Assembly: GCA_965219415.1 (NCBI GenBank)
Contig: CBDCNP010000002.1
Location: 3,552,001 to 3,616,000 of the forward strand
Reading direction: 5' to 3'
DNA: 64,000 bases
Origin: Candidatus Marinacidobacterales bacterium
GTDB lineage: Bacteria > Acidobacteriota > Vicinamibacteria > Marinacidobacterales > DATDRI01
Of the stretch, positions 476-42,635 are shown piece by piece. Every line of letters starts with the position of its first letter. Within the stretch, counting starts at the first letter, position 1. The notes under the pieces are model-generated. The model searched no databases, had not been told where the DNA came from, and was given only the letters and a program-made list of their open reading frames with translations. The position numbers were made by a program, and so were the translations under genes.

Positions 476-603
476 GGTGCTTCCGCCATCAAGTGTTGCT
501 ACGCCGCGTTTGAATGCTAGTGTCAGTTGGCTTGCCTGTGTCGGCGAACACCATACATAAGGATGTCGGGTGTACACGAACATCTCCCTGAACGTCAGGC
601 ACC
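476..603 (+). repeat. Family A end (GGTGCTTCCGCCATCAAGTGTTG), IS1-like TIR/MITE; an unoccupied copy of the IS1111 target
   Basis: Near-identical ends recur at 22401, 28437, 29251, 31004, 36906, 36976, 38091, 38935, 39342 and 40623, and reversed at 22703, 30941, 37177, 39701 and 42518. Confidence 0.85.
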
Positions 604-660
604 TGTGCCTTCTATTTATTCATCCGCGCGGCCCGAACTTGATTAATCTCTGGTCTGCCG
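604..660 (+). repeat. Family F end (TGTGCCTTCTATTTATTCATCCGC), left end of an rve-type IS
   Basis: Recurs at 23435 and 26156, and reversed at about 3753, 12324 and 42300; at 26156 it leads into an ELALESVALR transposase N-terminus. Confidence 0.75.
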
Positions 661-1847
661 GCGGTGCGTGACGCTTCGCAGCGGAGCACGGCGCAGCGCG
701 TCGGGAACGTCGAACAGCCCATCTGGTCAAAATACTCGAAGGCCCAGCGGGTCAGCAGTTTGCACCTGCGACCTGCCCTGCATCCTTAGTACTCATTCCA
801 GCCCAAACGCCCTCCGGAGGTCAGGTTTGTGTCTATATTCTCTGTTAATTCTCTGTTTTTCAGGGTTTCCAATCGAGACCGGATAGCTCCAAACTGCACC
901 ATCCGCCACCCAGTCTGGCCAATTGTGGCACTGCAGAGACGCGTGAGATTTTCCGCGCGGTTGGCGGGGTTTTGCAGGATCAGGTGTCACCAGAGACGCG
1001 CTAGAAGGGCCGAATGGGCCTCATTTTCGATATTCGTCTCTAATCGCGATTTTCGAGTGCCAAGTTTGCGCCAAATAAGGGAGTAGGCGCTGATCGAGCC
1101 ATGCGGGCGGCGGGAAAAGAGGCCACCCGAGAGGCCCAGAATCGAGGCCGGGGCGACCGCGGTGTAGCGGCCTAGCACGTTCTGGTCCAGGTGCGACCCG
1201 GGCCTCCTTGATGCTCGCTCTCGAATTGAGCCTCAAACAGGGTCCGCCAAGGCTTGAGCGAAGCTTCCTCCCGCAAAGCCGACGATGGCGTCGTCGGGTC
1301 GACCAGCACGAAGCAGCGAAGCATGGCAGGTCTAAACCGCGCAATCAATGCTGGATCGACTTTTTGCGGAGCACACGCGCCGGTCCTGACTTCGTTCGTG
1401 TTTTTGGACACGACGGGGCCGGAGGTATCTCACAGCGATTCATGACCCCGGTCATGGCGGCGACGGTCGGTCTGAACCGATGAAACTCGACGTGGACTGG
1501 TCCCAGGACCCGCCGGTTTCCGACCGGGACCAGAGGTATGATCTGGTTCGGGGACGCGACCGGGATCCGGGGCGCGATCGGGACGTTCATCGGCGCGGTC
1601 ATCGACGCGAGTTCGACGCACGACAGCCGCATCGGTCGCTCTCGGATCGGGTGGATGGTGTGGTGTACGATGTCGGGACGTTCCGGGTCGTACTATCTGA
1701 CCCTCGATGCCATGACCGGTCCGATGCTGGTGCGGGGGGAGTAGGACGGATTGCGAAGCAGCTACGACATGAGCGGGCAGGAGCGTCGATGACCTGGGTC
1801 TGGTCGTTACGGCGTCTGAGTCCGCGGAGCGCGCGGAGGTTCGCCGC

Positions 1848-3206
1848 ATGATCAGTCCAACGGAGTCGCTGGCGTTCTCGATGCATGCCAGTCCCGGCGT
1901 CTATGCGGTTCTGGCCGGATCGGGCGTATCGCGGGCCGCGAAGATCCCCACGGGCTGGGAGATTACGCTCGACTTGGTGCGGAAGCTCGCGGCACTCCGC
2001 AAGGAGACGTGCGATCCGGATCCGGAACGGTGGTACTGGAGCGCATTCAGCAAGGAGGCGGACTACTCGGACCTACTGGACGCGCTCTGCGGGACGGCGG
2101 CCGAACGGCAGCAGTTGTTGCGCGGCTACTTCGAGCTGAGCGCGGACGACCGTGAGGAGGGCACCAAGCAGCCGACCGCAACACACCGAGCCATCGCAGC
2201 GCTGGCTGCGAAGGGCTTCATTCGGGTCATTCTCACGACGAACTTCGACCGCCTGATCGAGACGGCGTTGGACGACGCTGGTGTGGCACCGGCAGTGCTG
2301 ACCACACCGGATCAGTTACAGGGCGCGTTGCCGCTGATTCACACGCGCTGCTGCGTCGTCAAGTTGCACGGTGACTACCTCGACACGCGGATCAGGAATA
2401 CCCAGGCAGAGCTCGATTCGTATCCCGCGGAGTTTAGTCGCCTGCTGGATCGCGTCTTCGACGAATTCGGCTTAGTTGTTTGCGGCTGGTCAGCGGCTTG
2501 GGGACGGAGCTCTGCGCAAGGCGTTGTACCGTGCGTCATCGCGGCGGTTCACGACGTACTGGGTGGCGCGTGGAGAAGTTACAGGCGAGGCCTGGAGCTT
2601 GATCGAGCACCGTGGGGCCAAGTTGATTCCGATCAAGGACGCTGACGATTTCTTCGGTGCCCTCCAGCAGCATGTCGAATCCCTCGAGGAGTTCGCACGG
2701 CCGCATCCACTGTCCACCGAAGCGGCTGTCGCAAGTCTGAAGGGCTACTTCGCCGAATCCCGGCATCGGATTCGGCTGTCCGATCTCCTCGACGATGCCG
2801 TCGAGCAGGTGGTCGAGACAACCTCCGACGATGCATTCACCGGTAATCCCTCAAGGGGGGATGACGACGCTGTCAACGCGCGGATGCGCGGCTTCGAAGC
2901 GGCTTGCTCGACGTTGCTTGCACTGGGAATAACGGCGATACCCGGTACACGTTGATCTTCGACAAACTTGAGATTCTCCTGACACTTGCCTACGTCCACG
3001 CCCACTCCGGGACAACTCCGCTACCGGACAGCGCGTTCTGGTACTTCCAGGAGAACGGAGGTCGCATTTTGAATGACATCGAGGAGTCGTTATCGTCAAG
3101 GTGCAACGAGTCACCTTTCGTCAGATCCCATATCTTCGGCGGCACCGCAGAGGAATGCCATCTTAGACTGAAGGACGTACGGAAAGTCATACCGAGTCAA
3201 GTGTGA
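1848..3206 (+). pseudogene. SIR2-like (SIR2_2) domain protein, frameshifted and probably internally deleted
   Basis: YAVLAGSGVS, ILTTNFDRLIE, VKLHGDY and VVCGWS motifs; extra G in GGGG at about 2500; second break at about 2940. Confidence 0.8.
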
Positions 3207-3304
3207 TCCCGTCGTGTCCAAAAACACGAACAAACTCACGACCTCGGGCCTTTGGGAAGGTGCAAACTGCTGACCCGCTGGGCGTTCGAGTATTTGGACC
3301 AGAC

Positions 3305-40603: not shown

Positions 40604-40669
40604 GTCCTGGGAATCAGTCCTGGGTGCTTCTGCCATCAAGTGTTGCTACGCCGCTAGAGGCATTTGAAT

Positions 40670-41475
40670 GGTATTGTCAAGTTGGCGTTGAGCGAGCGAA
40701 CCTATCGCGTCGAGCTGATTTCCTTTGCTCTCATCGGACGGCACAGGTTACCTCCTGCCAGGCGATGAAAGCGCGGTCTCGTAGCTCCCGATGATGATGC
40801 GCTTGCAACAAATGCCGTCCGACGCGAAAGAGGTTTTGCACGAGTCCATGCACGGTCAAGAATCGTTGCGCCTGCCCAGGAGTTTTAAACTTCCGCATCT
40901 GTCGTTCCCGTTGTCGCGTCGGTTCGTGCGAGACTTCGGCTAGGTTGTTTCTGTACTGGTCAGTGTCGTGGACGACGGACGGCATGACCTCGCGGTGAGC
41001 GGCACTGTAGCTTCTCAGTTTGTCGGTGACCAGCTGCCAAGGCGGGCGGCCTTGCCCTTTCAACAGCTTGCGGAAGAATCGTTTGGCGGCTTTCTGATCA
41101 CGGCGAGGCTGGACGAGGATATCAATCACATCACCATCTTGGTCTACCGCGCGCCAGAGGTATTGGCGTTCACCTTGTATCTTTATGAAGACCTCGTCTA
41201 GGTGCCACGTGTCACCGAGACGACCTTGCCGACGCTTCAGTCGCCGAGCGTATTCCGGCCCGAACTTGATGCACCAAAGTCGGATCGCTTCGTAGGAAAC
41301 CGTGATGCCTCGCTGAGCAAGCAGCTCTTCGACGTCTCGAAAGCTCACGCAGAATCGGTGGTAGAGCCAGACGGCGTGGCTGATGATTTCCGGTGGAAAT
41401 CGATAGCCGTGGTAGCTTGGCGCATCGGTTTTCATTGGACCATTCTGTCAGTCACCAGCTCAATTTGACAGTACC
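40670..41475 (-). mobile_element. IS6-family element, intact (transposase 40731-41435)
   Basis: YRFPPEIISHAVWLY, WHLDE, YLWRAVD and VTDKL motifs; TIRs GGTA(C/T)TGTCAA; isolated ends at 5001 and 39729. Confidence 0.92.
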
Positions 41476-42099
41476 CTACCGGAGGCTGCGCCGATCGTTC
41501 TGCCACCGCTGTCCACCAGCGATGAGTTCGTCCGCGCGATGGTCGAAAAGCTCTCCGCACATCCCGTGCTGGCGTCGTTTGTGGTGACCGAGCAGCTCGT
41601 TCGCAAAGCGGTGGTCGTCGTGGCCAACGTTGCGGAAGGGCTCAGCCCGGCTCGTCTGTTCCCGCATCTACGACCGGAGGAGCGGTTCGAGGTCGCCTCC
41701 CACTCGGGCCGACTCGTCATCGACGCGGAGAGCTACCATCGATATGACACGTACGTCGACTTCCTCGTTTCCCTCGATTCCGCTGGCCTCGTCGAAACGT
41801 ACCGCAATGTGAGACCCCTGATCGACGAGGCGTATCAGGAACTCGGCTACGGCGAGCAGCCATTCGAGGACGTTCTGACCATGGCCTTCGCGGTCGTTCT
41901 GAAAACACCCATTGTTCGGGGTGATATGGTCGTCGAGACAGTACGCGTCAACTACACTTACTCCGAGCAGTGGATCGAAGACCTCCCGCCCGTTCAGAGA
42001 CAGCTTCTTCGCATGGGACCGGACAACGTCCAGCGGATCCAGGCGAAGCTACGGGAGATCGCGGTCGAGTTCGGTCTTCGTCTGCCCGCCGAGGGCTGA
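41476..42099 (+). pseudogene. DUF3014-domain protein, N-terminally truncated by IS6
   Basis: SYHRYD, PLIDEAYQELGY and QRQLLRMGPDN motifs. Confidence 0.7.
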
Positions 42100-42635
42100 G
42101 CCCGCTCCCGGCAGGTGTTTGCTCACTGAACATTTAGAGCCTACAATCTCATTCAATCAGGACTCTGGCGGACGGCCAGTTAGGCTGTGATCCGCAAAAA
42201 AGCAGATCCCGTATCGCTGGATCGACTTTTTGCGGAGCACAGCTGGCAGACCGGAGATTAATCAAGTTTGGTGCGCGCGGATGAATAAATAGAAGGCACA
42301 GCTCCTCACCGAGCAGTGGTTTCAGCGCTTTGCGGATCCCGGCGGCTATTCGGGTGCTTGCGCTGTTTACTGTTGGTGATGTGTACGCATCCCTTTGCAA
42401 AAGAGGCGCTTACGCTCCACTTAGCGCGCAGCGAAGGTCACGAGCGCTATTTTCGCTGTAATTTAATGCACTGTAAAGCCTTAGCGTCATCTCACCAACA
42501 CTTAATGGCGGAAGCACCTGAATTGGTGTACCACGGATGAGGGAGGGCAGCAAGAGGCCTTGGGACAGGACGAGCAGGGTTCGAGCTAGGAGGCACGCCA
42601 ACGACTAAGACTTTGAGTGACCACCGCTCGCACGT

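Follow-up and report, generated by a model that had tools for sequence, protein, structure and literature searches.

Introduction

Passenger DNA that lies between inverted ends derived from insertion sequences (ISs) and is moved in trans is a known object, and passages in PMC3129680 describe it as mobile insertion cassettes and composite transposons. Resistance arrays of IS26, an IS6-family element, are presented in PMC7885326 as translocatable units that arise by targeted conservative insertion beside an existing IS copy. According to PMC11187229, IS1111/IS110 elements pick specific sites, including the terminal inverted repeats (IRs) of other transposons, and a seekRNA or bridge RNA selects the targets (PMC11187229, PMC11208160). 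A recent preprint (10.64898/2026.08.14.744561) deals with IS110 elements that carry cargo after expansion. The present analysis concerns a 64,000-nucleotide stretch of a Candidatus Marinacidobacterales genome, referred to as the window, in which cargo genes and short IS ends alternate from position 476 to position 42518. An earlier note on this DNA proposed that the region is an integron-like platform that captures genes through transposon ends without an integrase. We found that the region is probably the right end of an accessory plasticity zone of ~170 kb, that is, an ordinary defence island or graveyard riddled with ISs and MITEs (miniature inverted-repeat transposable elements).

The IS26 arrays are conceptually closest to the proposed platform, and in both cases cargo accumulates beside IS ends without new target-site duplications (TSDs). 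The arrays need directly oriented copies of the same IS, whereas the region contains one IS6-family copy (40670-41475) and unrelated ends between its blocks. As in an integron, short non-coding repeats alternate with mostly promoterless single genes. In contrast to an integron, the zone contains no intI-type recombinase and no common attC-like site, the boundaries belong to many unrelated families on both strands, and the region shows mixed orientation, multi-gene blocks and gene fragments. A six-frame search of the whole genome for tyrosine recombinases (PF00589) revealed 13 matches, none of which was located in C3:2,869,788-5,479,237, and thus none in the window or the zone.

Two blocks are candidates for mobile insertion cassettes. 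The block with an AMP-binding gene and the start of gatB (AMP-binding-gatB' block) is bounded by a D-type end, is present in multiple copies in two genera and lacks a transposase of its own, and the enoyl-CoA hydratase (ECH) gene lies between facing A3' tips. The right border of the former is variable, however, and most blocks of the array are single-copy with unmatched ends. As in a defence island, several systems or parts of systems lie close together between mobile elements, namely ZacABC, a PDC-S28 helicase, SIR2-HerA, a PDC-S65 fragment and a PD-(D/E)XK nuclease, but two of the systems are damaged by IS fragments, and non-defence genes and fragments of metabolic genes are mixed in. With known cases of IS and MITE proliferation the region shares partial ISs as recombination scars, transposase-less MITEs and solo IRs, intercalated elements, insertion hotspots and a genome-wide distribution. 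It differs from them in its high density, its many chimeras of ends from different families and the absence of TSDs in its main families.

Cargo blocks and repeat stacks

The window corresponds to C3:3,552,001-3,616,000 of G000, an 8.05-Mb genome with a GC content of 59% that is assembled in three contigs (C1 to C3) without N. Repeat copies at each window position were counted from a BLAST comparison of the window with its own genome (7,153 alignments). In 476-42518, ~17 blocks of unique or nearly unique DNA alternate with 18 stacks of short IS-derived repeats, which comprise ~58 repeat pieces within 42 kb and reach up to 461 other genomic copies per position. A repeat scan of the window revealed dozens of short direct and inverted repeat families in 476-42,536 and almost none beyond. 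The repeats stop abruptly at 42518-42536, and no stretch of 42537-64000 has more than 15 other copies.

The earlier note had suggested a comparison of the junctions with a random model. With shuffled sequence as the expectation, the A-type tip motif was found 15 times in the window versus 0.01 expected and the B-type tip motif nine times versus 0.00 expected, and all 24 motifs were located left of 42519. As evident from these results, the alternation is real and far above chance, and the abrupt end at 42518 was confirmed, while the count of over 20 cargo blocks was reduced to ~17. The start at 476 was not borne out. The same pattern runs 127 kb upstream, back to ~C3:3,425,000, so that 476 is an edge of the window and not of the structure. 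The IS-rich zone covers ~170 kb (C3:~3,425,000-3,594,518), the window contains only its last 42.5 kb, and only the right border of the array (42518) is real.

Genome-wide repeat density was determined with a family-free k-mer measure in which DNA with at least five copies was scored as repeat. The repeat fraction was 16.9% for C3, 18.6% for C2 and 7.3% for C1, and 2,824 repeat segments were present genome-wide, ~2,000 of them shorter than 400 bp. With 39 short and five long segments, the region ranked 57th among 794 sliding 42-kb windows; the densest such window contained 133 short segments and belonged to a zone at C3:4.72-4.80 Mb. The region is therefore not the special locus that had been supposed, since its density of repeats recurs widely in the genome. 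For an IS library, the multi-copy open reading frames (ORFs) of the genome were combined with the coverage plateaus that surround them, and its families carry r-numbers. For sixteen IS families, the genome-wide counts were 394 full copies, 930 fragments with one tip left (median 90 nt) and 173 internal fragments, and those in the region five, 24 and one, respectively. The flanks of full-length IS copies were repeat DNA in 246 of 788 cases (31%), versus a genomic repeat fraction of 15%.

For each outer stack border we asked whether other copies of the adjacent repeat continue past it, which marks a truncation, or diverge there, which marks a canonical element end. Nine of the 36 borders were left out because fewer than four other copies reached them, and the coordinates, which were taken from a coverage threshold, may be off by a few bases. 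Among the 27 testable borders, 22 were canonical ends and five (3245, 12480, 21735, 26305 and 34712) were truncations. That most cargo borders fall at tips is consequently correct, but simple insertion predicts it, since the boundary between element and target is a tip by definition. The stop-to-tip distances that the note had quoted also agreed with our coordinates: one stop lies at 3206, the bactofilin stop is at 28604 with a MITE end at 28602, the helicase stop is at 15428 with a tip at 15452, and the PD-(D/E)XK stop is at 4097 with a repeat end at 4063. Stops at 1-33 bp from tips are consistent with the survival of insertions just outside intact genes.

The right border and related genomes

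The right flank (42519-47200) was conserved in all 31 genomes searched, G000 counted, of which two from the same genus showed 87-89% identity, and homology to the relatives begins at 42521-42530. The unpublished genome G007 was included in the searches, but none of the conclusions depends on it. The left neighbour was compared in three relatives (G001, G002 and G003). In all three, the DNA left of the two ORFs at 42636-43807, called dNK and folK in the earlier note, is syntenic with G000 C3:5,011,187-5,030,784, which is 1.4 Mb away and inverted. Position 42518 is therefore a rearrangement breakpoint specific to G000 and not an attachment site for cassettes. The earlier note had proposed that relatives be examined for the dNK-folK anchor with other cassettes; plain core DNA was found there in place of an array, which argues against a capture site at this anchor. 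A simple inversion between two copies of one element was also considered for the border, but a single inversion is insufficient because the partner breakpoint at C3:5,011,187 adjoins a copy of the IS5-family element r10 and not an A1 MITE. In G002, a different element, a copy of r30, ends within ~10 bp of the border point. G001 is collinear with the window from the border through 47200 and over 47211-64000, while G002 is collinear up to 49807 and then has an IS-rich stretch of its own.

The same IS and MITE families were found in G001-G003 at 93-100% identity, and core DNA showed 72-89%. Cargo with identical breakpoints is also common to other genomes, namely the junction of ZacA and the r16 tip, the nadA fragment and the AMP-binding-gatB' block. 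ZacA together with 182 nt of the r16 tip recurs in G002 at 99%. In G001, which consists of a single contig, the IS and MITE matches cluster near both termini (~6.22-6.34 Mb and 0-24 kb). No match to Rfam at the gathering threshold and no tRNA or tmRNA was detected in the window, and PLSDB plasmids gave no near-identity match to 29251-33370.

Insertion sequence families, tips and MITEs

Transposase families were assigned with Pfam and NCBIfam, and defence genes with PADLOC models. The tips of the window correspond to the ends of full-length ISs at other places in the genome and come from at least nine transposase families, namely the rve_3 elements r8, r29 and r55, the IS1-like r44, the IS3 element r41, the IS256 elements r16 and r30, the IS110 element r2 and the IS6 element r53. 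The earlier note had recognized at least six families, which this count exceeds, and orphan families of short repeats are present in addition. Of these elements, r8 is 1,287 bp long (coverage ~69) and r44 is 1,200 bp long (coverage ~53), with two ends that are the "GGTGCTTCCGCC" A tips. The 1,439-bp r29 (coverage ~40) has B tips of 57-60 nt at both ends, and the 1,210-bp r55 (coverage ~19) bears the C tips. An rve_3-type core is present in the transposases of r8, r29 and r55, whose scores do not reach the curated cut-offs for IS481 and IS3; the transposase of r44 is below the IS1 cut-off. The features of the region and of the adjoining core are listed below.

476-1418: stack 1, with an A3'-type tip (476-549), a D unit (602-662), the left tip of r55 (718-767), a 332-bp repeat (874-1205) and a G unit (1308-1375)
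1848-2645, plus strand: defence gene with a SIR2 domain, truncated (positions 16-232 of 592 in the PDC-S65 model)
3245-4071: stacks 2 and 3, with an inverted left tip of r55 (3248-3306), the left 152 nt of the IS3-family r41 (3454-3605), a B-D MITE (3604-3755), an E unit (3813-3864) and an F unit (3961-4063)
4097-5011, minus strand: PD-(D/E)XK nuclease gene with DruK/Cas4-like matches
5064-5180: solo B-type 57-nt terminal repeat of r29 and a partial G unit
5339-11764, minus strand: intact ZacABC (ZacC 5339-8644, ZacB 8641-10560, ZacA 10526-11764), each matching its model end to end
11780-12326: right-end fragment of r16 (IS256; 11780-12183), cut by a B-D MITE (12176-12326)
12480-12809, minus strand: left-end fragment of r55 (consensus 3-332), with a truncation as its left border
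12894-15428, plus strand: full-length helicase defence gene, PDC-S28 model positions 1-825 of 831, GC 51.7%
15452-17559: nested stack, with a T unit (15452-15649), the left 323 nt of r8 (15670-15992), a right fragment of r55 (15992-16272) and a full-length r8 (16273-17559) with a 349-aa transposase ORF
17857-21968, plus strand: PD-(D/E)XK/RNase H-like gene, SIR2 (473 bits) and HerA, the last truncated (model positions 7-353 of 576) with its 3' end entering an r55-like fragment from 21749
21749-22703: stack, with a diverged internal fragment of r55, a D-end fragment (22198-22319), a partial A1 (22399-22497) and the right part of the A3' MITE family (22538-22703)
22731-23330, plus strand: AhpC/redoxin-family gene
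23645-24003: stack, with a 268-bp S repeat and a complete 88-bp r55 MITE (23916-24003)
24052-24927, plus strand: 291-aa ORF with a weak PDC-S18 match, GC 53%
25509-25595, plus strand: complete 88-bp r55 MITE
25594-26153, plus strand: nadA fragment, NadA profile positions 48-181 of 295
26156-28415, plus strand: AMP-binding-gatB' block (2.26 kb), with a D end (26152-26305), the AMP-binding gene (26505-28292) and, at its right end, the first ~92 nt (~30 codons) of gatB together with the initial 28 nt of a B tip
28437-28602, plus strand: complete A1 MITE with imperfect terminal inverted repeats
28604-29155, minus strand: bactofilin gene
29251-30941: A3' MITE split by r2
30943-33372: stack, with a B-tip/r44b junction unit (30943-31005), the right tip of r44 (31004-31102), the right 929 nt of r30 (31100-32028), the left tip of r55 (32029-32086) and a full-length r8 (32088-33372)
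33393-34736, minus strand: gene for a Sel1-repeat protein, with 108-nt tandem repeats and an Excalibur domain
34711-36074: stack, with an L unit (34711-34769) and a full-length r8 (34788-36074)
36149-36958, minus strand: 269-aa ORF (orf269), no family match, GC 51%
36906-37398: stack, with the first 76 nt of A1 cut by the left tip of r44 (36976-37051), that tip cut by a B tip (37050), the right end of r44b (37069-37177) and an N unit (37331-37398)
38017-39701: stack, with a B unit (38017-38090), the right 844 nt of r44 (38091-38934), a complete A1 (38935-39100), an r55 MITE (39189-39275), a partial A1 (39342-39393), and O, P and Q units that reach a right-facing A3' tip (39619-39701)
39854-40603, plus strand: ECH gene between two facing A3' tips
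40670-41475, minus strand: full-length IS6-family r53, transposase 40731-41435
41476-42180, plus strand: DUF3014 gene block
42216-42518: last stack, with a partial G unit, a D unit (42242-42301), an internal piece of r16 (42301-42352) and a complete A1 (42353-42518)
42636-47206: core genes right of the border, with the two ORFs at 42636-43807, an AMP-binding paralogue (43974-45767) and the gatB region

The region contains five full-length IS copies with transposase ORFs (three of r8 and one each of r2 and r53). Many of the tips are discrete short units, both boundaries of which are common to many genomic copies (50-370). The statement that the tips mostly lack transposases therefore needed correction in both respects: full-length copies are present, and many tips are complete small elements. 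The A1 MITE (166 bp) has imperfect terminal inverted repeats of its own (score 15-19 over ~26 nt) and is complete at 28437-28602, 38935-39100 and 42353-42518, and 149 genomic copies span the whole unit. An 88-bp r55 MITE made of both r55 ends was found at 23916-24003, 25509-25595 and 39189-39275. The B-D MITE (152 bp; 3604-3755 and 12176-12326; 69 copies) pairs a B tip with a D tip at its opposite end. Whole-unit copies number 366 for the 57-nt B unit and 129 for the D unit genome-wide. A1, the r55 MITE and the B-D unit are all short, non-coding and multi-copy, with IS-related terminal inverted repeats, as MITEs are. The short units are thus MITEs, solo terminal repeats and chimeric units in which the ends of different families are combined.

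Truncated ISs are also present, namely positions 964-1367 of r16 at 11780-12183, 532-1460 of r30 at 31100-32028 and 356-1200 of r44 at 38091-38934. The broken side of each adjoins the intact tip of the next element, which indicates nested insertion. At least 19 of 480 A tips adjoin a B unit, and they do so at two recurrent positions. The 57-nt B unit was considered as a target site and rejected, as it is the terminal repeat of full-length r29 and also resembles the ends of r55, whose transposase is related. A ~3-kb repeat at G000:C1:1119131-1122195, which contains a 560-aa large serine recombinase (Resolvase and Recombinase domains), ends in a B-type tip as well; its serine-recombinase ORF cluster is present in four copies.

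Target-site duplications

TSDs were counted only at offsets outside the elements, and a cross-copy test in which ends were swapped between copies was included. The IS256-type families have kept 8-bp TSDs (r30, 19/24; r1, 22/29; r7, 16/31; r16, 9/26), and TSDs of 7 bp and 4 bp were found in 32 of 41 copies of the ISL3-type r3 and 18 of 36 copies of the IS3-type r0, respectively. Among full copies genome-wide, no TSD of 4-9 bp was detected within or across copies for r8 (0/49), r44 (0/32), r29 (0/11) or r55 (0/9). The IS5-type r10, which is absent from the window, had a TSD within the copy in 0/29 cases at 5-9 bp and 1/29 at 4 bp, and four cross-copy 9-bp matches were found where none were expected. 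For the A1 MITE, no direct repeat of 2 bp or more was present in 135 of 142 copies.

The array does lack TSDs, as had been noted, but this is not a local property. Since r8, r44, r29 and r55 have none genome-wide, the missing TSDs are a trait of the families that dominate the region and not the mark of a special local process. Nor is the absence of TSDs at A1 an argument against its mobility, because the full-length families of parent type lack them as well.

Insertion of the IS110-family element r2 into IS ends

The transposase of r2 matched the NCBIfam IS110 model NF033542 with 302.6 bits (cut-off 140) and the Pfam families DEDD_Tnp_IS110 and Transposase_20. Each of the 27 full copies of this ~1.45-kb element occupies one and the same site within an A-type terminal repeat, which belongs either to r44 or to a ~250-bp MITE, with the insertion point between ...CATCAAGTG and TTGCTACGC... 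of the A-type IR. In the window, r2 (~29271-30715; transposase 29307-30383) splits a ~250-bp A3' MITE into 29251-29270 and 30716-30941. A paralogous bactofilin block at C3:~1,858,090 carries the same MITE uninterrupted; this empty site shows that r2 inserted precisely and without evident duplication.

Insertion into IS ends, which the earlier note had invoked, therefore does take place, as the 27 copies of r2 at a single IR position demonstrate; the repeat DNA at 246 of 788 flanks of full copies agrees with it more generally. Like the IR-targeting elements of the IS110/IS1111 group, r2 is of DEDD type and sequence-specific, with one site in the IR of another family. What sets r2 apart is that it enters the IR of an IS1-like family that is unclassified, and of the MITEs of that family. 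IS4321 and IS5075 reportedly enter the IRs of the Tn21 family, as reported by Partridge and Hall in 2003. The element r2 offers a clear case, found in nature, of an IS110-family element whose programmed target is the end of another IS family.

Damage and origin of the cargo

PADLOC identified ZacABC and the PDC-S28 helicase in full, together with SIR2 and HerA, which agrees with the view that the long intact cargo is related to defence. Six of the ~17 blocks, about a third, contain something broken, namely the PDC-S65 fragment, HerA, nadA and gatB, and in the same list the r55 left end at 12480 and the D end at 26305. Truncated genes that adjoin canonical element ends are consistent with IS-mediated deletion or rearrangement. 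The composition of each cassette was also compared with core DNA, as had been proposed. Five of 16 blocks (the helicase, the SIR2-HerA block, the PDC-S18-like ORF, the Sel1 gene and orf269) fell below the 5th percentile for size-matched core chunks. This indicates mixed origins of the cargo, with several unrelated sources. For 10 of 17 cargo intervals, no other match of at least 100 bp was present in the genome.

The 560-nt nadA fragment shows 98.75% identity to the central part of an intact nadA that belongs to the nadA-nadC operon of G003, a genome from another genus (positions 3931-4965 within G003:C3:2424000-2433000). No other nadA was found in G000, where this fragment is the only remnant, and the nadC part of the G003 operon had no DNA match. 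In the window, the AMP-binding block has a D end on its left and an outward-pointing B tip on its right. Positions 26635-28384 are also a 67%-identical paralogue of the core AMP-binding-gatB segment at 44104-45856, just right of the border. The two A3' tips that flank the ECH gene (39645-39701 and 40623-40679) have 57-nt arms that are 95% complementary. The few recurrent blocks would, from their sequence, fit mobile insertion cassettes or composite transposons. TSDs are unusable as proof of block transposition here, because these families make none.

Discussion

The IS graveyard, which the earlier note had itself listed as an alternative, is a better reading than a capture platform, in view of the genome-wide pattern and the broken cargo. 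An integron-like, locus-specific platform finds no support, given the lack of a common site or end pair, the lack of a tyrosine recombinase in the zone, the broken cargo and its mixed origins. Of the mechanism that had been suggested, end-targeted insertion, adjacent rearrangement and a few mobile-looking blocks stand as ordinary IS biology, and the locus-specific machine does not.

In the graveyard reading, the host genome is saturated with ISs and their miniature derivatives, and the cargo is horizontally acquired DNA of several origins. The apparent IS tips comprise complete MITEs and chimeric repeats, solo terminal repeats and IS copies truncated by later insertions. The growth of the stacks would reflect that dead mobile DNA is where new insertions have the best chance of survival, or that they are directed there, most clearly in the case of r2. 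Adjacent deletions and inversions mediated by transposases, together with recombination between copies, may have removed IS interiors and gene halves and shuffled the blocks, and some blocks between compatible ends may have been duplicated whole, much as a mobile insertion cassette or composite transposon would be. There is no dedicated capture site, and the right border is a rearrangement breakpoint against the core genome.

Several observations weigh against this account. The share of one-tip fragments is somewhat higher in the region than elsewhere (24/30 versus 906/1,467), a marginal difference (Fisher p = 0.055). In the 170-kb zone the B-type tips are co-oriented, with 36 on the plus and 10 on the minus strand (p = 1.6e-4); the 36 all have distinct upstream 20-mers, and the B-D MITEs are oriented 7:0. 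Chromosome-wide, the B tips are distributed 235:247, with an opposite bias at 4.5-5.5 Mb. The scrambled GC skew of C3 does not allow the origin and terminus to be located for a comparison of B-tip orientation with the direction of replication, and the graveyard reading has no explanation for the co-orientation. An uninterrupted match to the joined flanks was never found for r8 (0/49) or r44 (0/32), and these elements may move by a route that always rearranges DNA. Together with the B-tip bias, these flanks keep a directional or rearranging mode of transposition open. Recurrent blocks count on the same side. The AMP-binding-gatB' block has two copies in G000, the second at C3:4428822-4431030, and three in G003 (98-99%), and its left border is at a D tip in all five; its right border varies, and one G003 copy (L032) is closed by an inverted D end. 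The DUF3014 block occurs three times on C3, where its copies share a left breakpoint and differ in their neighbours; the two copies other than that at 41476-42180 do not adjoin an IS6-family copy, and seven full copies of this family (r53) are present genome-wide. The bactofilin block (28434-29273) has a second copy at C3:1858093-1858963. The anatomy, the copy numbers, the genome-wide distribution, the target specificity of r2, the TSD counts and the break in synteny are results of the analysis; the order of events and the enzyme that moved each block are matters of inference.

Some of these observations would also be expected if cassettes were actively moved in trans by the transposases of B/D, A or C, with a preference for each other's ends that assembles arrays; in that case the zone would have arisen by capture and not only by decay. 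The constant D tip of the AMP-binding-gatB' block across two genera and its closure by inverted D ends in L032, the multiple copies of the DUF3014 and bactofilin blocks, the ECH gene between facing A3' tips, the strict targeting of r2 to an IS end, the recurrent contact of A tips with B units and the co-orientation of the B tips all point in this direction. Most blocks are nevertheless single-copy, their flanking ends are unrelated and show no consistent orientation, about a third hold a broken gene, and the recurrent insertions of A into B are a small minority, so that we regard active end-driven mobilization as unlikely. A broader form of the idea, that a guild of TSD-less, still unclassified rve-type IS families (A, B/D, C and r8) and their chimeric MITEs land in each other's ends, together with an RNA-guided IS110 element directed at one of these ends, and make self-extending, directionally ordered pads that gather, break up and pass on defence genes and parts of neighbours' chromosomes between co-resident genera, is speculative and seems doubtful. 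It would take the 36:10 ratio of the B tips as a mark of order, and the 99%-identical blocks with identical breakpoints suggest exchange between genera. If correct, the guild would be an integrase-free system of capture and exchange at the level of the whole accessory genome and not at a single locus.

The alternation might instead be a chimeric path of the assembly through the repeat graph, given repeats with up to several hundred copies and contigs from public runs that are short over 17567-29250 and break at repeats. The genome is, however, in three contigs without N, and junctions are common to independently assembled genomes: the ZacA-r16 junction recurs in G002 (99%), the nadA breakpoints in G003 and the gatB'-B-tip junction in three G003 copies. 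Contigs of run X18, which possibly represents the source sample and would then not be independent, bridge 24003/24004 and 25508/25509, and extend for 31 nt or more to either side. An artefact is therefore very unlikely. Least probable of all is the remnant of an integrated plasmid or conjugative element whose lost site-specific machinery once organized the cassettes. Recent horizontal transfer is indicated by pieces of IS, MITE and cargo at 97-99% identity versus 72-89% for the core, and the same units cluster near the two ends of the G001 contig; against this, the zone has no tyrosine recombinase, and no conjugation or replication genes were found among the ORFs scanned, which were those of the window and not of the 127 kb upstream.

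A capture platform would have been a new route of gene acquisition, whereas the evidence is that of ordinary, if extreme, proliferation of ISs and MITEs around defence genes. The region shows the erosion of defence systems by mobile elements, as seen for HerA and the PDC-S65 fragment, and it documents IS families and MITEs that leave no TSD. The near-identical IS, MITE and cargo fragments across genera point to intense exchange of DNA in the habitat.

We also observed that the Sel1 gene contains seven tandem 108-nt repeats in 33675-34622 that match each other (C3:3.586 Mb), with diverged paralogues of ~80-86% identity at C3:4.536 and 5.522 Mb.

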